A DNA stretch of 64,000 bases from a virus. Its lineage: Duplodnaviria; Caudoviricetes. The DNA lies in IMG/VR virus record IMGVR_UViG_3300032038_000003, positions 1 through 64,000 of that record; one strand, given 5' to 3'. The notes beneath the pieces are model-generated. The model saw nothing but the letters and a program-made list of their open reading frames with translations. It searched no databases and was not told the DNA's origin. Made by a program: the position numbers and the translations under genes. How positions within the stretch are numbered: the first letter of the stretch is position 1; every line of letters begins with the position of its first letter. Positions 1-10,698 of the stretch are shown here, piece by piece.

Positions 1-1
1 C

Positions 2-526
2 CAGTTCTTCACCAATGAAGAGCGTAAGGAGTCTGAGGCAGTAGTAGCTCCTGTTATCGAGGAGCCTGTAGTTGAGGAGCCTGTAGTGGAAACAGTAGTT
101 GAGGAGCCTGTAGTTGAGGAGCCTGTAGTGGAAACAGTAGTAGAGGAAAAGGAAAATAAGGAGGTTTCTATGAAAGAGAAGTACATGGATGCAAAGTGGG
201 ATAAGTTGGTTAAGGCTGTAGCTGCTGAGTACGTAAAGCAGTCTTTGGGTGTTAAGTGGGCATTGTTCTACAAGAACACTAAGGCTACTGCTACCAAGGC
301 TGAATACCTGGTTAAAACCAAGAAGCTTTGGGGTGCTACCAGCAAGGTAATTAAGAACCTTTATGGAGAGAAGAATTGCAACGAGGATACCATTCAGCAG
401 ACTTTGAATGCTATGGTAGTTCGTGGTTACCTTAACTTCCAGAAGGTACAGGGTAAGAACGGTACAAACGTTATCTTTAACGCAAGTGCTGATCAGATGA
501 ACGCTATGTGGAAACTTAGCAAGTAA
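2..526 (+). CDS. Hypothetical early protein, 5' truncated by window edge; acidic EEPVV-repeat linker then basic, possibly winged-helix C-terminal domain; strong internal in-frame start at 170
   Basis: Frame open from base 2; AAGGAGG SD before ATG 170; terminator follows. Confidence 0.7.
   Translation, partial: QFFTNEERKESEAVVAPVIEEPVVEEPVVETVVEEPVVEEPVVETVVEEKENKEVSMKEKYMDAKWDKLVKAVAAEYVKQSLGVKWALFYKNTKATATKAEYLVKTKKLWGATSKVIKNLYGEKNCNEDTIQQTLNAMVVRGYLNFQKVQGKNGTNVIFNASADQMNAMWKLSK
59..142 (+). repeat. Coding tandem repeat, 2 x 42 bp (EEPVVEEPVVETVV)
   Basis: Direct inspection. Confidence 0.95.
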
Positions 527-539
527 TCTTATTGTTGCT

Positions 540-564
540 GGGGGAATCTGAAAAAGGTTCCCCC
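540..564 (+). terminator. Stem-loop after first ORF
   Basis: GGGGGAATCT-gaaaa-AGGTTCCCCC. Confidence 0.6.
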
Positions 565-931
565 TATGTAATCATGTATCATTAGGATTTAAATTAGATC
601 AGATCTATATATAGTGTTGGTGTTTTATTTAAATTCTTATTTTTATAAATATTGCTATATTTATATATAATAGAAGAAACTCCTACTTGGAAAAAGTATT
701 AAGCCAGTAGGAGTTTCTATATATTGTGTATAACCAACTGCGATAGGAACTCGGCAAAGTAATCGTAACTGGTTATGCTATGCAATAGCATAACTAAAAA
801 TTAATCATTTGTCAATAGACGACTCATAGGAAGTCATGCCTATGTTTAAGCATTGTCCTTTAGCTGCATATAATATTGGGGTGTCATTATATTCTATATG
901 GTGGTACTTTGATAAGCGACTTTATTCAATG

Positions 932-945
932 TGGTCTAACGACCA
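932..945 (+). promoter_or_regulatory. Hairpin promoter candidate 1
   Basis: TGGTC-TAAC-GACCA, GATGAA at +9..14 after loop, upstream of ORF 977. Confidence 0.7.
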
Positions 946-976
946 AATGATGAATAATTATTAAGGAGGTCTAATC

Positions 977-1282
977 ATGAAAGACATTATTGTAAGAACT
1001 ATTAACAAGTATCAGACAGAGGTTATTGTAGAAGGTAGAAGAGTAGTATTAACTGATATGAAGAAAGTTAATGCTGCTAAGGCTAAGAGAAGAAAGGTTG
1101 GTAATATTATTATCAATACTGTTTTAGTAATCGCTTTTGGTGCATTAATGCTTTGGGAAATCTGGTTGTTCTTTACTTATGATGAAGGACACTGGGAGGC
1201 TGATTATGTTAATGAGGAGGGTCAGTTTATTGATATCGATGGCGATGGCGATTGTTATCATTGGGTTGACCCTGTTAACTAA
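977..1282 (+). CDS. Small single-pass membrane protein
   Basis: AAGGAGG SD; hydrophobic stretch IIINTVLVIAFGALMLWEIWLFF. Confidence 0.8.
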   Translation: MKDIIVRTINKYQTEVIVEGRRVVLTDMKKVNAAKAKRRKVGNIIINTVLVIAFGALMLWEIWLFFTYDEGHWEADYVNEEGQFIDIDGDGDCYHWVDPVN

Positions 1283-1976
1283 TCAGCTCTAAGAATAGAC
1301 AATAGCCCAGATATAGAATCTATGTTAAAAAGGTTTTTATTAGATCTTTAACAGATTATATATTAACCTTCGGTTATGGGGCGACAAAGAGAGTCGCCCT
1401 ACAGGGCATCGTTGTATCAGATGAAAAGAGCCAGTGAGAGTTTTCTCACTGGCTTTGCTTGCAAAGCAAGCAAAGTATAATCTATTTTAGCTTAAATGTC
1501 AATAGCATTAGACATTATTCTCTGGTTTATTTAATAAAATATGCTATCGAGTGCTGTTCGATAGTATATTAAGAGAATAAGTATATGCTGTCGCTAGGCG
1601 AGGGATCCTGGTCCCCCATAGAGAAATCTTTGATTCTTGGCTAAAATGTAGCTTATAGCTATATTATACTCTTTTCGTTTATTCTTCTGTCTATTCTATA
1701 TATTCCCCTATAGTGTATAAGTATCTTACCATATATAAGTACTCTTTTATCTCTTATATATTCTTGAGATTAGTTAGACGCTCTTATCCAAAAGTTAATC
1801 TATTCTCTATTCATTTTACTATGCTTTTGGATATTATTTATCGTCTTTGCTTAAAATAATATACACTATTCTTTTTGCTTTTGTGTAAGGGTAAGCTATA
1901 TTTCCTGTAGTTTTCTCTTACATTTTATATATATCACCTATTAACTTATTATTCATCCATAGAAAGGAGAACTATT

Positions 1977-3056
1977 ATGGAAAAGAAGAACAAAGAAATG
2001 TCACCCGTTGTTAAAGAGGTTCGTGAATCTCTTGGTAGAGATTACCACAGAGTATTAACTTGGTATCACATCATGCATCCTCACATTAAGAGAATGCGTG
2101 ATGAGCACTATCAGGAAATGGCCGCTCAGTGGAAACTCTGTAAAGCTGTTGAGGGTATGATCGAGATTGATGAAGAATCATCTTTATCTGCCTGTACTGT
2201 TGAAGAGCAGTATTTAGAGCGTACTTATCGCTTTTTCACCATGCTCTTTAATGGTGATAAGTTGGCTCAGCGTGATGACTCTGAAAAGAGAGCATATATC
2301 GCTGATTGTATGGCACAGTTTACCAGACAGACATCTACGGAGACTCTTCATAAGAATTCTATTTATTTACTGAAGATGTCTCTTGAGGATATCCAGTTTG
2401 ACTCTACTGGAAATGCTATCTTTGACTCTCGAAATGCTTCTGTATTTATTGGTGGCAATATTCAGAGTAAGAGCAAATCCATGCGTTGGGTAGCATCCTC
2501 TGAAGATGGAATTTCTCGTCTTCTTGAGAGTTATGGTTTATCCCAGGTTATCGTCTTTATGGGCGAACAGGGTAAGACCGATGAAGACAAAGCTACTCTG
2601 TTATCCACAAAGGAAAATATATTCCTTCATGGCATCACTGATATTGCTTCGGGCAAACACTATATGTGTTCTGCTCCTTCGGCATCCAGCACCCGTCACG
2701 CAGACTTTCCGTTTATTGAAGCGGATAGTCCAGCTGATGTCTTTAAAATCTGGTGCGAAATCACTGGATTTAAGACTATCGAAGATCTCGTAGCTGGAAT
2801 TGGGTCCTTCAAGGATGGTAAGTATATTGTCAATCTTGCTAAGCTTAAAGCGAGAATTGCAATGAGAGGTTCTAACTCTTTCGATACTTATCAGACTGTA
2901 CAGAATCCTAATGTATTGTGGAAGTTGAAGCATCCGAATGTTGATTATGTATCGGACGCTTCTGGAACTACTAAAGTACCATATAAGGGTATTACATCTC
3001 CTGGAGTTTTAGAGATGAAGAATCCCGATGGTACTATCACTACGGAGAGAGTCTAA
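1977..3056 (+). CDS. YonO/RdRP-like RNA polymerase, N-terminal part
   Basis: SASSTR and AKLKARIAMRGSNS match the S-x-S-Q-x-R and K-x-x-A-R-x-x-x-x-x-S motifs of cellular RdRP/YonO; GAAAGGAG SD. Confidence 0.7.
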   Translation: MEKKNKEMSPVVKEVRESLGRDYHRVLTWYHIMHPHIKRMRDEHYQEMAAQWKLCKAVEGMIEIDEESSLSACTVEEQYLERTYRFFTMLFNGDKLAQRDDSEKRAYIADCMAQFTRQTSTETLHKNSIYLLKMSLEDIQFDSTGNAIFDSRNASVFIGGNIQSKSKSMRWVASSEDGISRLLESYGLSQVIVFMGEQGKTDEDKATLLSTKENIFLHGITDIASGKHYMCSAPSASSTRHADFPFIEADSPADVFKIWCEITGFKTIEDLVAGIGSFKDGKYIVNLAKLKARIAMRGSNSFDTYQTVQNPNVLWKLKHPNVDYVSDASGTTKVPYKGITSPGVLEMKNPDGTITTERV

Positions 3057-3074
3057 TGGCTCTCTCCATATTTT
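3044..3074 (+). terminator. 10-bp hairpin with the ORF stop codon in its loop, followed by ATATTTT
   Basis: GGAGAGAGTC-TAAT-GGCTCTCTCC. Confidence 0.55.
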
Positions 3075-3146
3075 ACCTATCACTAATAATTTTAATTAGG
3101 GTGCAGAAAGGACATCCTTGGGTGAGAATCCCTAAAATGTTGGATT

Positions 3147-5861
3147 ATGATGAACAATAATACTGTTAAGGAACTCAGAGAGATGGCTAAGGTTGCTGGT
3201 ATCGTTGGATATAGCAAGATGAAGAAAGCTGAGCTTATTGACGCTCTTGCTAATGTTGCTGCTAACGAGATGGTTGAAGAAGTTGTTACAGAGTCTGCTG
3301 TTGAAGAGCGTAAGACCATTCCTGGTGATGGAATGATGATCTGCTCTTTCACCTATGCTGCTACTATGGCATGTGCAATGCGTATCATCACTGAGAATGA
3401 GTACGATGTATTCGTATCTCAGATCGCTACTGTTAATTCGCTTGAAGAAGCTTATGAGAATGTTAAGCTTCGCAAGCTTATCCAGAAAGTTCCTTCTGTA
3501 TTCCAGATTAGACATGAAGGATGTAAAGGTATCGTTGTTAAGTATCCTCTTGAGTTCATCGACGAGCTTAAGGATAAGGATCTGGTTATCACTGATGGAG
3601 CAAGAAAGTTCGCATCTCAGAACTGGGAAGAAGCTCCTTTGGAAGTATGTAATTACTTAAAGAGAAAGGATAAATGGGTTGCTCTTAATCCTCAGTTCAT
3701 CCAGGCTCTTAAGTTCGAGAATCCCAACGCTTTAATTCCCGTTGTGGATTTCTGGTTCAATAAGCTTGAGGAATCTGTAACTGATATCGCTAAAGCTCAG
3801 GAGTTCCATGGAATTATCTCTTCTGTAGATGGAGCAAGCGATACTAATAGCAACCTCGTTGTTGCTCTTCGTAACTCAAGTGACCTTGTTGATGATTTCC
3901 AGGTTATCAACTGGAGAAGACAGCAATACGAGAAGTTTATCACCGATATGAAGGTTGGTAGAGTTCTCGTTCCTGGTGAGTATACTTACATGGTATGTGA
4001 TCCAGCATACATGCTGAATTCTATTTATGGCCTTAACCTTAACGCCCTTGCATCTGGAGAATACTGGTTTAATAACCATGTAGGATTTGCTGGAGCATTT
4101 AGATCTCCTCTTATCGCTCCTTTCGAAGCACAGAAGTTCAATTGTGTTGAGAGAGAAGACTACTGGTTCTTCAAAGATATCGTAGTATTTAATGGCTATG
4201 ATGGTGCTTGGGAGAATATGGGCGGTGCCGATTTCGATGGCGACACTTGTGCTATCGTTCCCGACAATACAGATCTTGGCAAGATCATCGTTGATGGTAT
4301 CCGTTCTATGAACTATGTAGTATGGGAGCCTGGTCTGTCTGCTGTAAAAGAAGAGTTCTCTTGGGAGAATATGGCAAAGTTCAATGCTAAGGTTGCGAAA
4401 GTTGACCGTACTGGCATCATTACGAACTATGCATCCAGAGCCATGGATATCTCTAATCACCTTGAGTCTTGCATCTACTTTGCAAAGATGATGGGTTGTG
4501 TTGGTATCTATATGGTACATCCTTCTGAGGTTCAGAATTCTTCTGAAATGAAGCCTCACACTATGACTATTAATGGCGAGAAGTACTTCGCCATTCGTGG
4601 TCTCGTACATGCTACAGAGAAAGATGGCGTTGTTCGTTATGATAACGATGGCATCTATGGCATCAAGACATTTGACCAGGTTCAGAAGATCGCTGATGAA
4701 TATCTGGCAAAGGTTGAGTATCTTCGTCTTATGCAGGGTAGAGAGATTGACTCTGCAAAGACTGGTGTTGCTGCTGAAGGTATGAGTGGACTGGATTTTG
4801 TTGACTCTGTTAAGGTTGAATTCACTCCCCAGGAGATGATTACCAGAGTTGAGGTTCTTGGTCGTCCTGTAGCAAAGTTTGCTCAGCTGAACAAGTATCA
4901 GTCTCTGTCTCCTCTGGCAAGAGTACATGATTATGTTGAGCAGAAGGGCCTTGAATTCATGAATCGTTTTGCAAATGGTTCCGATAAGGTTGCTCTCCTT
5001 CTTAAGCTGTTATCAGCAGAAGAGAATGCTCAGCTTAAGATGAATGTTTCTTTTGCTGATGGACGCATGATGACTCTGCTTGACTATCTTAAGGCTCGTA
5101 AGTCTGAGTATGGTAAAAAGATGTCTGAAATCTTCAAGGCTGAATTACCCGATGAAGAACTTAAGGATGTCATCAATGGTCTCAAGACAAACGAGATTAA
5201 TACTCTTAACCAGCTTGCAGTAAACCTCAAGGTTTCTGTTGAGGTTATCGCAGTTGCTTGTTATATCGTTGCTTATACTAAGGACGGTAACTTTGGTACT
5301 GGTCTTACTTATGGCTGGTTACTCTTTGACGAGCTTCTGTCTGTATTCACAAGAAACAACAAGAAGTTTGAGCTTTACAGACTTCCTCGTTATGCTGAAG
5401 AGGTTTCAGTATCTGCTGGATATCTCTATGTAAATGAGAAGGAGTATGCTCCTATCGACGATGTTGATGATTGTGAGTATGTTCCTGTTCAGCTTATCAA
5501 TGGAAAGCCTTATGCACTGATCCACAAGAGAAGTGAAAAGGTTGTTGCTGTTGTTGCAAGCCAGAATGTTGGTGCTGTTTATACCATCGACATGATTTAT
5601 GGCTTCAAGTATTCTTGTGGTTCCAAGGACGAGTGGAAGAGAATCGTTAAGGAAAACGGTTATGTATTTACTGTTGACTTTGATGAAAACTCCAGACTGT
5701 CTGTTCTTGTTAACGGTGTTGTCATCGGTGCTATCAAGGCTACTGTTGCTGATCTTCACATTTCTGAGCTTGTTGGACACGAGGTAAAGGCTATTGGTTC
5801 TCCCGATTATAAGGAGACCGAGAATACTATCGCTAACCTCGTTGTTCGTGTAGTAAAGTAA
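3147..5861 (+). CDS. YonO/RdRP-like two-barrel RNA polymerase, catalytic part, with N-terminal Rho_N-like domain
   Basis: PGDG, FQIRHEGCKG, RSP and catalytic GGADFDGD motifs; N-terminal TVKELREMAK..GYSKMKKAELIDAL is Rho_N-like. Confidence 0.9.
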   Translation: MMNNNTVKELREMAKVAGIVGYSKMKKAELIDALANVAANEMVEEVVTESAVEERKTIPGDGMMICSFTYAATMACAMRIITENEYDVFVSQIATVNSLEEAYENVKLRKLIQKVPSVFQIRHEGCKGIVVKYPLEFIDELKDKDLVITDGARKFASQNWEEAPLEVCNYLKRKDKWVALNPQFIQALKFENPNALIPVVDFWFNKLEESVTDIAKAQEFHGIISSVDGASDTNSNLVVALRNSSDLVDDFQVINWRRQQYEKFITDMKVGRVLVPGEYTYMVCDPAYMLNSIYGLNLNALASGEYWFNNHVGFAGAFRSPLIAPFEAQKFNCVEREDYWFFKDIVVFNGYDGAWENMGGADFDGDTCAIVPDNTDLGKIIVDGIRSMNYVVWEPGLSAVKEEFSWENMAKFNAKVAKVDRTGIITNYASRAMDISNHLESCIYFAKMMGCVGIYMVHPSEVQNSSEMKPHTMTINGEKYFAIRGLVHATEKDGVVRYDNDGIYGIKTFDQVQKIADEYLAKVEYLRLMQGREIDSAKTGVAAEGMSGLDFVDSVKVEFTPQEMITRVEVLGRPVAKFAQLNKYQSLSPLARVHDYVEQKGLEFMNRFANGSDKVALLLKLLSAEENAQLKMNVSFADGRMMTLLDYLKARKSEYGKKMSEIFKAELPDEELKDVINGLKTNEINTLNQLAVNLKVSVEVIAVACYIVAYTKDGNFGTGLTYGWLLFDELLSVFTRNNKKFELYRLPRYAEEVSVSAGYLYVNEKEYAPIDDVDDCEYVPVQLINGKPYALIHKRSEKVVAVVASQNVGAVYTIDMIYGFKYSCGSKDEWKRIVKENGYVFTVDFDENSRLSVLVNGVVIGAIKATVADLHISELVGHEVKAIGSPDYKETENTIANLVVRVVK

Positions 5862-5865
5862 TATC

Positions 5866-5907
5866 TTGGGGGCATCCTGGAATACAGGGTGCTCCCAAAA
5901 ATTTTTT
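5866..5907 (+). terminator. Rho-independent terminator after RNAP
   Basis: TTGGGGGCATCCTG-gaata-CAGGGTGCTCCCAA followed by A/T run. Confidence 0.75.
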
Positions 5908-5928
5908 GCCCTAACGAGACGGGCATAA

Positions 5929-5944
5929 TAAAACTATCGTTTTA
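5929..5944 (+). promoter_or_regulatory. Hairpin promoter candidate 2
   Basis: TAAAAC-TATC-GTTTTA, GATGA at +9..13. Confidence 0.7.
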
Positions 5945-5976
5945 ATGATGATTTTAATTGCGAAAGGAGAATCGTT

Positions 5977-6444
5977 ATGCAGATACCTAAAAGTTATACA
6001 TCTTTATGGAAACAGATCAAAGGATTTATCCCCTCAGATGATATTGATAGTGAATTAGATTTCGGAGGTATTATCATTCCGATATCGAAATATGGAAGTG
6101 ATCCATATTATGACTTTAACGAAGGAGTAATATCATATCATATCCTTCCTAATGAGAATCATAAGGGATATAAGGGAAATTGGGATTTTGACTTTAATCA
6201 AGACTCTTATGAAGGATGGAAAAGCTGTCGTTCTCGTCGTTTCAATGACTTTGATACTAAGAAGAAAGACTATTCTCTGGAATATGCTGGTAAAAAGGTT
6301 AGTAGAAGAAAAGTGTACGACTGCTATGAAACGAGAACAACATATAAGTTTATCTATTCTTCAGATACAGAGAAAGTGATTTTGTATGTTACAATTGTTG
6401 AAGATATTGATATCGATGCATTTGCTATTGCAGAATATGAATAA
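5977..6444 (+). CDS. Hypothetical protein
   Basis: ORF with GAAAGGAG SD. Confidence 0.8.
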   Translation: MQIPKSYTSLWKQIKGFIPSDDIDSELDFGGIIIPISKYGSDPYYDFNEGVISYHILPNENHKGYKGNWDFDFNQDSYEGWKSCRSRRFNDFDTKKKDYSLEYAGKKVSRRKVYDCYETRTTYKFIYSSDTEKVILYVTIVEDIDIDAFAIAEYE

Positions 6445-6458
6445 TAGGGGGTGTTAAT

Positions 6459-7220
6459 ATGCTGTTTACTGGTAGTATTAAGGATATCGACAAATCAAAA
6501 TATGATGAAATTTGGATTATTGCCAGAAAGATTGGCAATGTACAGACTGGTGGAAATATATATCATGTTCCCCAGTTAGCTCCAAGCTATGACTTGCTGA
6601 ATCGTTATTTGTCGTGGAGGTCACAGGGTATCTGGAATAAGAATCAGTTTGATACTGTTTATACTCCACAATTCTTAAACGAAATGCAAATGCCTATGGC
6701 ACAGCAGTACTTAAGACTGTTGCAATCCAAATCCAAGGAGAAGGATGTATTGATCTGTTGTTTTTGTAGAGACGAATCAATATGTCACAGAACTCTCGTG
6801 AAAAGAATTATAGAATCTATGAATAATTCTTTTTATTTATTAGTTGCTGGATCTCGTGGTTTTAATAATTATCCTCTTCTCAAAGAGAAGTTGGATTATC
6901 TTTTACAGAACCAATCTGATAAAGAGATCCATATTGTTTCTGGTGGTGCTAAAGGAGCAGATACTCTTGCTGAATGGTATGCCAAGGAGCGTGGTTATCA
7001 AATGCATGTATTCCCAGCTGATTGGAATCGCTTTGGTAAGTCTGCTGGTTATCGTCGTAATGAACAAATGCATCAGTTTATCTCTCAGTTTCCAAAGAGA
7101 GGGTGCGTTTGTTTCTGGGATGGAGAATCTAAAGGTACTCAACATAATTTCAAGTTATGTGAAACCTACGGTACTCCTCTTCGTAAGATCATGTTTCAGC
7201 CTAATTCTCTCAGTCTTTAA
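6459..7220 (+). CDS. DUF488-like domain fused to SLOG (YspA/DUF2493-like) domain
   Basis: LAPS..CFCRDESICHR N-domain; VAGSR..VSGGAKGAD..ADW..GKSAGYRRNEQM C-domain. Confidence 0.75.
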   Translation: MLFTGSIKDIDKSKYDEIWIIARKIGNVQTGGNIYHVPQLAPSYDLLNRYLSWRSQGIWNKNQFDTVYTPQFLNEMQMPMAQQYLRLLQSKSKEKDVLICCFCRDESICHRTLVKRIIESMNNSFYLLVAGSRGFNNYPLLKEKLDYLLQNQSDKEIHIVSGGAKGADTLAEWYAKERGYQMHVFPADWNRFGKSAGYRRNEQMHQFISQFPKRGCVCFWDGESKGTQHNFKLCETYGTPLRKIMFQPNSLSL

Positions 7221-7235
7221 CGAGATAACGAGAGA

Positions 7236-7251
7236 GCCGCCTATTGGCGGC
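7236..7251 (+). promoter_or_regulatory. Hairpin promoter candidate 3
   Basis: GCCGCC-TATT-GGCGGC, GGTGAA at +9..14. Confidence 0.7.
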
Positions 7252-7370
7252 ATGGTGAAACAGTTTTGTTCTCTCTTCTCCTGTCGGGGGATGATCTATG
7301 ATCATCCCCCTCTTTTTTTAAAACAGGCTGAAGTTAGACATGGCTATTTATTTATATGGAGGTATCGCTT

Positions 7371-7829
7371 ATGCAAATTTTGAGAACTCAAACCGATATC
7401 TTTTATCTTCCCAAAACAACAGAGGCTGTTGGTATTACTACCAATGGTGTTATCGATAAAAACGGCAATGCAGTTATGGGTAAAGGAATTGCTCTTCAAG
7501 CAAAGAACTTATTTCATTGCGAAGCCAAACTTGGTCAGTATATTAAAACCTACGGTAATCGTTGTTTTAATCTTGGGATGTGTAAAAGAGATAACGAGAC
7601 ATTCACTCTATTTTCTTTTCCTACTAAACATCATTGGAAAGAAATGAGTGATATCACATTAATTTGCAAATCAGCAGAAGAGATTATGCAGATGTGTGAT
7701 AAGTTTGGTATCACCAAATGTTATTTACCACCAGTTGGATGTGGTGCTGGTGGACTGAACTGGGAAGTTACTGTTGAACCATGGTTATCAAATATATTAG
7801 ATGACCGTTTTATTATCGTGAGGAGGTAA
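7371..7829 (+). CDS. Macro domain (ADP-ribose binding/hydrolase) protein
   Basis: TTNG..MGKGIA, FPTKHHW and PPVGCGAGGL motifs. Confidence 0.85.
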   Translation: MQILRTQTDIFYLPKTTEAVGITTNGVIDKNGNAVMGKGIALQAKNLFHCEAKLGQYIKTYGNRCFNLGMCKRDNETFTLFSFPTKHHWKEMSDITLICKSAEEIMQMCDKFGITKCYLPPVGCGAGGLNWEVTVEPWLSNILDDRFIIVRR

Positions 7830-7831
7830 TT

Positions 7832-7963
7832 ATGGATAATTTTGATTACGACGCACAGTTAAGAACGATTGGATATTCTGAAGAAGAAATATCCAATATG
7901 GATCAGAACGAGAAAGAATATGTAGTACAGGAATGGCGTAGAGCCAACGACTTACCATTATAG
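7832..7963 (+). CDS. Small acidic hypothetical protein (43 aa)
   Basis: GAGGAGG SD; below ORF-track cutoff. Confidence 0.6.
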   Translation: MDNFDYDAQLRTIGYSEEEISNMDQNEKEYVVQEWRRANDLPL

Positions 7964-7974
7964 GAGGGAGAAAT

Positions 7975-8307
7975 ATGAAAACTAATTTTTTAACTTACGG
8001 AGACATCAAACATATCGCTGAAGATTATGCAAAAAAGAATAACTGCAAGGTTAAGATTGAGATTGTAAACCATAAGACACATAACACTATGACTCTCGAA
8101 GAGGTATCTTTATTACTCTATAGTGCTGGTATACCATCTTATCGAAATACATATAATCTTCGATCATCAAACAGAGAGAGGATGATCTATTATCTTGCAG
8201 TAAAAGGTATGAGTATCGTAGTTATCTGTAATTTTATCTATGCTCAAGGTACAGAAGTCAACGGATATAAGATAGAAGCAGATGGACAACTAAGTTTTGT
8301 ATTTTAG
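7975..8307 (+). CDS. Hypothetical protein
   Basis: ORF with SD. Confidence 0.75.
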   Translation: MKTNFLTYGDIKHIAEDYAKKNNCKVKIEIVNHKTHNTMTLEEVSLLLYSAGIPSYRNTYNLRSSNRERMIYYLAVKGMSIVVICNFIYAQGTEVNGYKIEADGQLSFVF

Positions 8308-9977: not shown

Positions 9978-10062
9978 TTGATGAATAATATTATTTATTC
10001 AAAACTGTAAACAAACCCTAAATTTTGCATCGTGCTTAAATGCACAGAAAGTGAGGTACACT

Positions 10063-10698
10063 ATGAGTATGAAAATTCACGCAATCGGAAGAACTGTTAA
10101 AATCCTTCGCCCTTATGCTGTAGAGCAGAAGACTGGACGCAACGGCGTTTTCGAGTCCAAGATGGTTATGTGGACTCTTGCAACAGACCGTGATTATCGT
10201 CAGGCTACTACTAACGCAGACGGTTCTGTAACCCAGGAGAGACACACCGACTTCTTCGCATGTCGTGCTACTGGACCTATCGCAGACCTCTTTGCGAAGT
10301 ACTGCAACGCAATGAAGAAGGATGAGAATGGCAATGATAAGCTGGTTTCTCGTCGTATTGCTATCGAGGGTCACCTTGAGAAGTACAACGCAACAAGAAC
10401 TGAACAGGTTCAGCTCAACAACGGTCAGATTATCCAGGTTACTCTTCCAGAAGAGAGAGAAGTTGTTGTCGTAGAGAACATTGAGTTCCTCGACGCTAAT
10501 CCTTCCAAGAGCAATGCTGGTACTACTGCTACTGCTACTATCGCACAGACAGTTGCTCCTGTTGCACAGACAGTTGCTCCTGTTGCACAGACAGTTGCTC
10601 CTGTTGCACAGACAGTTGCTCCTGTTGCACAGACAGTTGAGAGCATTCCTGTTGCTCCTGTTGCTAATGCTGTTAATGCTGAAGTTGCTCCTTTCTAA
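10063..10698 (+). CDS. ssb: Single-stranded DNA-binding protein (early copy) with AQTVAPV repeat tail
   Basis: LATDRDY..TDFFAC..IEGHL..VVVENIEFLD OB-fold motifs; C-terminal APF. Confidence 0.8.
   Translation: MSMKIHAIGRTVKILRPYAVEQKTGRNGVFESKMVMWTLATDRDYRQATTNADGSVTQERHTDFFACRATGPIADLFAKYCNAMKKDENGNDKLVSRRIAIEGHLEKYNATRTEQVQLNNGQIIQVTLPEEREVVVVENIEFLDANPSKSNAGTTATATIAQTVAPVAQTVAPVAQTVAPVAQTVAPVAQTVESIPVAPVANAVNAEVAPF
10543..10639 (+). repeat. Coding tandem repeat, ~4.6 x 21 bp
   Basis: GCACAGACAGTTGCTCCTGTT units. Confidence 0.95.

Follow-up and report, generated by a model that had tools for sequence, protein, structure and literature searches.

YonO of the Bacillus subtilis prophage SPbeta is a proven DNA-dependent RNA polymerase (RNAP) (PMC5467207). 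YonO and gp99 of Bacillus phage 0305phi8-36 are phage two-barrel polymerases of the Pfam RdRP (PF05183) type and are single chains (PMC7824862), and YonO-like enzymes are presented as relatives of multisubunit RNA polymerase that consist of a single peptide. Here, a relative of these enzymes is described from the window, the whole stretch of 64,000 nucleotides that was analyzed (positions 1 to 64,000 of IMG/VR record IMGVR_UViG_3300032038_000003, a virus of the Caudoviricetes). It has the same catalytic residues but is laid out as two genes with a Rho_N head on the second, and among its relatives the chain breaks repeatedly at two seams. Judged by sequence comparison and modeling, the locus very probably encodes a YonO/QDE-1-family polymerase as two separately translated subunits.

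Two genes for one two-barrel polymerase

The window makes up the first part of a virus record of 210,314 bases, which is taken to be circular because its ends overlap by 166 nt. The genes in question are the following:

1977-3056, plus strand: open reading frame 1 (ORF1), predicted N-terminal subunit of 359 residues, assigned by homolog alignment, motif, and fold; no Rho_N head by hidden Markov model (HMM)
3147-5861, plus strand: ORF2, predicted catalytic subunit of 904 residues, assigned by Pfam RdRP, invariant residues, and Foldseek matches to QDE-1 and RDR2
3147-3278, plus strand: Rho_N (helix-extension-helix) head of ORF2, assigned by Pfam, HMM, relatives, and the ratio of nonsynonymous to synonymous changes (dN/dS) against locus L001

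The two ORFs share a frame across a 90-nt spacer with four in-frame stops, and 261 nt separate TTER in the first from KTIPGDG in the second, which agrees with the original prediction of an insert of approximately 260 nt that split a single-chain YonO/RdRP-type polymerase just before its DG motif. The homolog search gave 82 uncut chains of approximately 1200-1480 residues (typically 1250), compared with the two ORFs here, and 27 catalytic chains of approximately 870-940 residues that start like ORF2. The order in the 82 uncut relatives is head, ORF1 part, catalytic part, so that ORF1 and then ORF2 are matched within one chain. ORF1 aligns with the N-terminal 340 or so residues after the head (approximately 22-36% identity), and ORF2 from residue 54 resumes a few residues past the end of ORF1; together, they tile the whole enzyme. 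By this alignment, ORF1 and ORF2 are two parts of a QDE-1/YonO-type two-barrel RNA polymerase, and the tiling and the catalytic residues bear out the predicted split.

ORF2 has Pfam matches to Rho_N at residues 6-36 (E 1.9e-7) and to RdRP PF05183 at residues 107-449 (E 5e-20; 72.2 bits, above the curated cut-off of 23.8). It carries the two-barrel set, namely, the DxDGD triad, the preceding R-x-P, the barrel-1 Asp, and two basic residues, and its key residues (D61-G62, Q120/R122, K127, K154, R319/P321, and D362-D364-D366) are all invariant in 51 homologs. Neck/head-like and C-terminal regions follow the catalytic residues. Foldseek matched ORF2 to QDE-1 (2j7n, E 2.9e-12) and to RDR2. The nearest cultured-phage protein is gp99 (ORF099, 1218 residues) of 0305phi8-36, itself a large phage of approximately 219 kb, with 27.6% identity over ORF2 58-438 (E 1e-19); YonO is not among the phage matches to ORF2, and the tie to it is at the family level. 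The enzyme would be DNA-dependent, judging from YonO (PMC5467207) and from its setting in a double-stranded DNA phage.

ORF1 comprises a helical N-terminal part, a region like the slab of QDE-1 with an SASSTR motif, and the helix before barrel 1 (KxxAR, with R293); then come the first barrel-1 strand and, at the C-terminus, a beta-hairpin. Pfam and PHROG searches of ORF1 gave no match, and its profile comparison with 0305phi8-36 gp99 was weak (E 0.05). The predicted model (mean predicted local distance difference test score, pLDDT, 86) found its best fold match in QDE-1 (7y7p; Z 6.8, root-mean-square deviation 4.6, 148 residues aligned), where Z 6.8 alone is moderate, with RDR2 and crAss gp66 lower (Z 4.0) and only weak RdRP rows in Foldseek (E 0.01-0.1). 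Thus, the original prediction, which would have fallen had the N-terminal ORF lacked RNAP homology, stands on the match to uncut relatives and on QDE-1 as the best fold match. There are 41 stand-alone ORF1 homologs, and approximately 39 ORF1-type chains measure 340-430 residues. The ORF1 homologs at L010 3816-4976 and L038 599-1867, both of this sub-clade, carry an insert of approximately 45 residues at the loop that is cut in the second type of split enzyme (site B, below).

The split is shared by other viruses. Close relatives come mostly from bovine gut samples, and an independent bovine-gut contig is continuous over 1500-4108 across the ORF1-ORF2 junction, which answers the question of misassembly raised with the original prediction: the junction is not a chimera. 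The identical split was found in 10 further contigs, giving 11 loci cut at this place (site A) in all, and the split form recurs in proteins down to approximately 40% identity; in every split locus examined, ORF1 lies directly upstream of ORF2. Against L001, dN/dS is approximately 0.08 for both ORFs alike, by which both are under purifying selection. None of the RNA contigs that were mapped links ORF1 to the catalytic part, although contigs drop rare variants, and hence this is no proof. The single DNA-only joint, 3066 to 3390 with unknown letters between, is probably a diverged relative.

Place of the cut and the modeled complex

Judged by motif, R293 of ORF1 would be the counterpart of R671 in QDE-1, a residue of the helix that precedes barrel 1, and D61 of ORF2 that of D709 (PMC9508822); the cut is therefore placed inside barrel 1, in a beta-hairpin insert, rather than between the two barrels. 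ORF2 holds the barrel-1 residues as well as the DxDGD barrel, unlike the cellular-type division into beta and beta'. The C-terminus of ORF1 (ERV or similar) extends a few residues past the junction of the uncut chains and is kept that way.

The modeled ORF1-ORF2 complex scored 0.83, compared with 0.00 for the best of three controls; the mark for this score was attained by 58 of the 80 solved complexes and by 2 of the 110 mismatched pairs. At least 84% of contacts agree between runs, the partner pLDDT is 81 or more, and ORF1 320-328 pairs with ORF2 145-149. The score is read as fit and not as binding, since the halves of a split gene can pass by their likeness to solved single chains such as QDE-1 and RDR2. 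The heterodimer that was originally proposed is the best reading, with an interface that is a modeled one and may owe its score to that likeness.

In the proposed mechanism, ORF1 and ORF2 would both be transcribed after infection, separately translated, and then assembled. ORF1 would bring the slab-like part, the helix ahead of barrel 1, and the first strand of the barrel; by docking on ORF2, which has the rest of barrel 1 and all of barrel 2 with the DxDGD motif, it would complete the active site, including barrel 1, and the surface that binds the RNA product. The assembled non-virion enzyme would transcribe phage genes from DNA in the manner of YonO (PMC5467207).

The Rho_N head

The head was originally taken for a new nucleic-acid-binding module brought in by the insert. 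This view is contradicted by the relatives: a Rho_N head stands at the N-terminus of 60 of the 82 uncut chains and is internal in none, and it is found at the start of 25 of the 27 site-A catalytic chains and on none of the 41 ORF1 homologs. By these positions, the head is the native, ancestral N-terminus of the uncut enzyme, moved or copied to the second gene and lost from the first, and the order has changed from head-A-C to A and head-C. It is strongly conserved as protein (dN 0.011, dS 0.80 against L001) and is followed by an acidic linker predicted to be disordered (ORF2 42-51). Held on this flexible linker, the head probably helps the enzyme to hold DNA or nascent RNA, and it may act at hairpin or ssDNA promoters, as originally suggested; that it follows the catalytic chain points to a function needing a tether near the barrels. 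It is not indispensable, since the split relatives P0089, P0020, and P0034 are head-less. An N-terminal extension of the clade-2 ORF1s was considered as a decayed head, which HMM scoring does not support.

A second Rho_N head occurs in a gene across the record join (G000 210051-210148 plus window 1-526), together with a Glu/Val/Pro-rich repeat linker and a further domain with a weak BlaI-type winged-helix match (E 0.03). Of 30 positions in the head of ORF2, 17 are identical in the head of this upstream gene and up to 22 (median 17) in the heads of uncut chains; the seed of the ORF2 head may therefore have been either its own gene's 5' end or the upstream Rho_N gene. Two close relatives, L004 and P0001 (the latter with 98% identity in the catalytic part), have a clearly different Rho_N head; since their heads differ and L004 has a normal Shine-Dalgarno sequence, exchange of a spacer-plus-head cassette between phages is suggested.

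The spacer and the start of ORF2

Three RNA features accompany the gene pair:

3044-3067, plus strand: hairpin of 10 bp with the ORF1 stop codon in its loop and a T-rich run after it, terminator-like or mRNA-stabilizing
3098-3132, plus strand: two-hairpin RNA element, in which a 6-bp stem closed by a purine-rich loop precedes a 3-bp stem whose loop, UGARAAU, is T-loop-like
5866-5898, plus strand: predicted hairpin resembling an intrinsic terminator, closing the two-gene unit

The spacers of the 11 loci measure 24, 49, 53, 62, 64, 70, 87, 88, 90, 90, and 91 nt and fall in all three frames, in frame in four; the shared frame of ORF1 and ORF2 is incidental, given that the spacers of 7 of the 11 loci are out of frame. 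The ORF2 ATG is present at all 11, and in 6 of them it is preceded by a Shine-Dalgarno sequence (-7.9 to -10.7 kcal/mol) spaced to the ATG. Nine of the 11 site-A loci have the stop hairpin, in a weakened form in L001, and its 3' arm shows matching changes; together with the T-rich run, it could end or stabilize part of the transcripts. The two-hairpin element lies approximately 15 nt upstream of the ORF2 start and is limited to loci whose ORF2 lacks a Shine-Dalgarno sequence, i.e., the window, L001, L002, L034, and L041, which belong to two distant clades; all 45 pair cells are paired, and one pair covaries (G-C/A-U/C-G). It probably serves the translation of ORF2. Rfam gave no match to it, and an exact-pattern search of IMG/VR gave no other occurrence. 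Its T-loop-like part presumably resembles the T-loops of the flavin mononucleotide (FMN) riboswitch and of group IIC introns, a likeness for which Rfam gave no support.

A frame of 35 codons over the ORF1 stop (3056-3160), considered as a ribosome relay to ORF2, is open in the window and L002 and closed in L001, L034, and L041, and is not general. The motif ACCTATYA, present in the spacer and before ORF1, has 3 of its 10 plus-strand copies between genes, too few to call it a promoter; sigma-70 sites were at chance level, and an Rfam scan of 1-8000 gave nothing real.

Alternative readings

Three points weigh against two separately translated polymerase subunits. ORF2 of the window has no recognizable Shine-Dalgarno sequence (-0.3 kcal/mol, compared with -4 to -12 for most other genes); polymerase activity is attributed by family, since the nearest cultured-phage protein shares only 28% identity over part of its length; and codon matches at the junction give a weak hint of programmed ribosome hopping. 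In hopping of the kind known from T4 gene 60, the take-off codon of the ribosomes would be the last Val codon of ORF1, located within the 5' arm of the stop hairpin, and the landing codon the first Val codon of the Rho_N head; with the spacer skipped, Rho_N would come to lie inside barrel 1 of a single chain made alone or beside the two chains. A take-off codon in the 5' arm of a hairpin, with a stop and an AU-rich gap after it, has been described for gene 60 (bioRxiv 10.1101/2022.08.31.505936), and the putative take-off codon here is placed likewise in a conserved hairpin. In both cases, the stop codon lies within the hairpin, and the AU-rich stretch separates two portions of an ancestral gene. 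One tRNA could read both the take-off codon and the first same-residue head codon in 10 of 11 loci (exactly in 5, inexactly in the window) and in 6 of 7 independent Val cases, for which the chance of approximately 0.04 is a rough after-the-fact estimate, and five loci lack a Shine-Dalgarno sequence. Val and Glu are, however, common at the start of these heads anyway, the codons mismatch in L004, and the gap would range from approximately 33 to 115 nt, not the conserved length expected. All 11 loci retain an ATG located a few codons upstream of where the ribosomes would land, and the Shine-Dalgarno sequence, where present, is spaced to this ATG; no uncut relative among the 82 has an internal head. 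Hopping is therefore improbable, as is the more novel reading in which these loci, with their stop hairpin and matched Val codons, would be another natural family of programmed hopping with no relation to T4 gene 60, one mRNA giving both the two-chain and the single-chain form; skipping of the insert by recoding, as the original prediction allowed, fits poorly with spacers of varying length and frame.

It is likewise improbable that ORF2 alone is a shortened polymerase, with ORF1 as an accessory or regulatory protein dispensable for catalysis. All eight residues called invariant in two-barrel polymerases (PMC2919709) do map to ORF2, which is near YonO in size, and the terminator-like hairpin may allow different expression levels of the two genes. 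Against this, ORF1 holds the invariant KxxAR arginine and a modeled strand of barrel 1 with more than 300 contacts, the slab and helix counterparts in QDE-1 bind the RNA product and are required for activity (PMC9508822), and every split locus examined keeps ORF1 directly upstream.

Splicing of the RNA or protein, which would remove the 260-nt insert or its product and restore the ancestral single chain, was also raised originally and is highly improbable. The ends can be joined into a junction like that of uncut relatives, and group I introns do enter this gene family, at the catalytic motif (L051). Rfam intron searches gave no match in the window, L034, or L041, and the non-coding part of 24-91 nt is too short for a group I or II core; neither the length nor the frame of the insert is constant, and strong purifying selection acts on the protein encoded by its head part. 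There is no Hint/intein match in Pfam or intein motif, the facing ends are the polymerase hairpin (ERV or similar) and Rho_N, and the conserved end of ORF1 runs a few residues longer than the uncut junction. Lastly, although the window is the assembly of an uncultured virus, an assembly artefact or decaying pseudogene is already refuted by the contig that independently spans the junction, by the recurrence of this split in 10 further contigs and in proteins down to approximately 40% identity, and by the dN/dS of approximately 0.08.

Repeated fission in the family

A second cut site (B) lies approximately 75 residues before site A, just ahead of the KxxAR helix, in the chains P0020, P0034, P0052, P0065, and P0071, for which matching short N-terminal halves exist. 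In the catalytic-part trees, which are unrooted, P0052, P0065, and P0071 group with the uncut P0075, far from P0020 and P0034, which sit among the site-A chains. Topology tests rejected one clade of all site-B chains (p ~1e-59), one clade of all split chains (4e-5), and a site-A clade without nested site-B chains (5e-4), and weakly rejected site A with P0020 and P0034 (0.02; long branches, no mixture model). Because single clades are rejected, at least two independent fissions took place, probably more. One origin of site A is favored by features common to its two clades (stop hairpin, ERV end, and RNA element), and P0020 and P0034 are best seen as site-A forms altered by later change or recombination. 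The uncut form is taken as ancestral, being the common state in both sub-lineages and the state in 0305phi8-36 gp99. At one site-B locus at least (L011), a decayed head is apparently still on the first chain.

The head is likely to have changed place by duplication of the gene's 5' part followed by complementary losses, or by copying of a start-site-plus-head cassette into the barrel-1 hairpin; either route fits, because a short ER strand is kept at both ends. Repeated fission at two seams, neither of them the beta/beta' boundary, means that chain number is labile and weak evidence on the ancestral state.

Interruptions of another kind occur at the catalytic DxDGD motif of uncut-type relatives, by a group I intron in L051 4065-4401 (Rfam E 8e-11) and by an insert with a 272-residue ORF in L049 2145-3299; P0162, P0165, P0169, and P0182 end at the same place.

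Genome neighborhood

Approximately 700 nt upstream of ORF1 (1283-1976) are gene-free and hold several hairpins (e.g., 1429-1454). Relatives also have a long gap here, and the terminal repeat of 0305phi8-36 stops approximately 800 nt before its polymerase gene, so the gap may be the genome end. Twelve perfect hairpins with the loop C-TA(T/A)C-G occur on the plus strand alone (window 932, 5930, 8315, 9314, 9915, 9963, 13192, 13556, 34514, 54583, and 59600; G000 66683), and the sequence CCTATCGG has eight of eight plus-strand copies between genes; these are candidate phage promoters. An open frame of 3396 codons on the minus strand (G000 136885-147072), with a DFDGD motif near residue 2362, is a candidate second, virion-type RNA polymerase; the hairpins, with their fixed loop, may be promoters for the split polymerase or for this DFDGD protein.

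Downstream, window 6459-7829 has DUF488-N3a fused to a YAcAr/SLOG domain and then a Macro-domain gene. Most relatives have a DUF488 and/or YAcAr gene behind the polymerase, to which L035 adds NADAR; L043 has DUF1273 two genes downstream. This neighborhood is possibly a counter-defense based on nicotinamide adenine dinucleotide (NAD)/ADP-ribose. A gene resembling single-strand DNA binding proteins (10051-10698; PHROG 44, E 4e-5) has a tandem repeat of seven residues near its end.

Comparison with known systems

QDE-1 (2J7N, 7Y7P-T) and RDR2 (7ROZ, 7W84) are the best structural matches of both halves and have the same order of slab, barrel 1, and barrel 2, but they are single chains of 12-15% identity, act in RNA silencing, and lack a Rho_N head. 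Among phage enzymes, the phiKZ/AR9-type jumbo-phage RNAPs (PMC7824862) likewise have their beta equivalent cut into an N-terminal piece and a barrel-containing piece. They are, however, of the multisubunit cell type with beta and beta' on separate chains, whereas here both barrels are largely on one chain of an RdRP-like family. Phage Aeh1 similarly encodes an essential enzyme, the split NrdA (PMC3045599), in two genes; its parts reassemble with no need for splicing and have new tails at the cut ends. There, the cut was made by a homing endonuclease gene, which the phage still carries, whereas neither such a gene nor a remnant of one was seen in any of the 11 spacers here.

The polymerase family itself is thus already known, as are split phage enzymes that reassemble (Aeh1 NrdA, PMC3045599; phiKZ-type RNAPs, PMC7824862), and a literature search, incomplete in coverage, found no paper on a split YonO-like enzyme. 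What is new is that a native head has been relocated, that a single subfamily is cut recurrently at two sites, and that a structured element takes the place of a Shine-Dalgarno sequence. The natural whole, site-A, and site-B versions form a ready series for the study of slab and head function, and a naturally split polymerase could be used as a two-input switch in synthetic biology.

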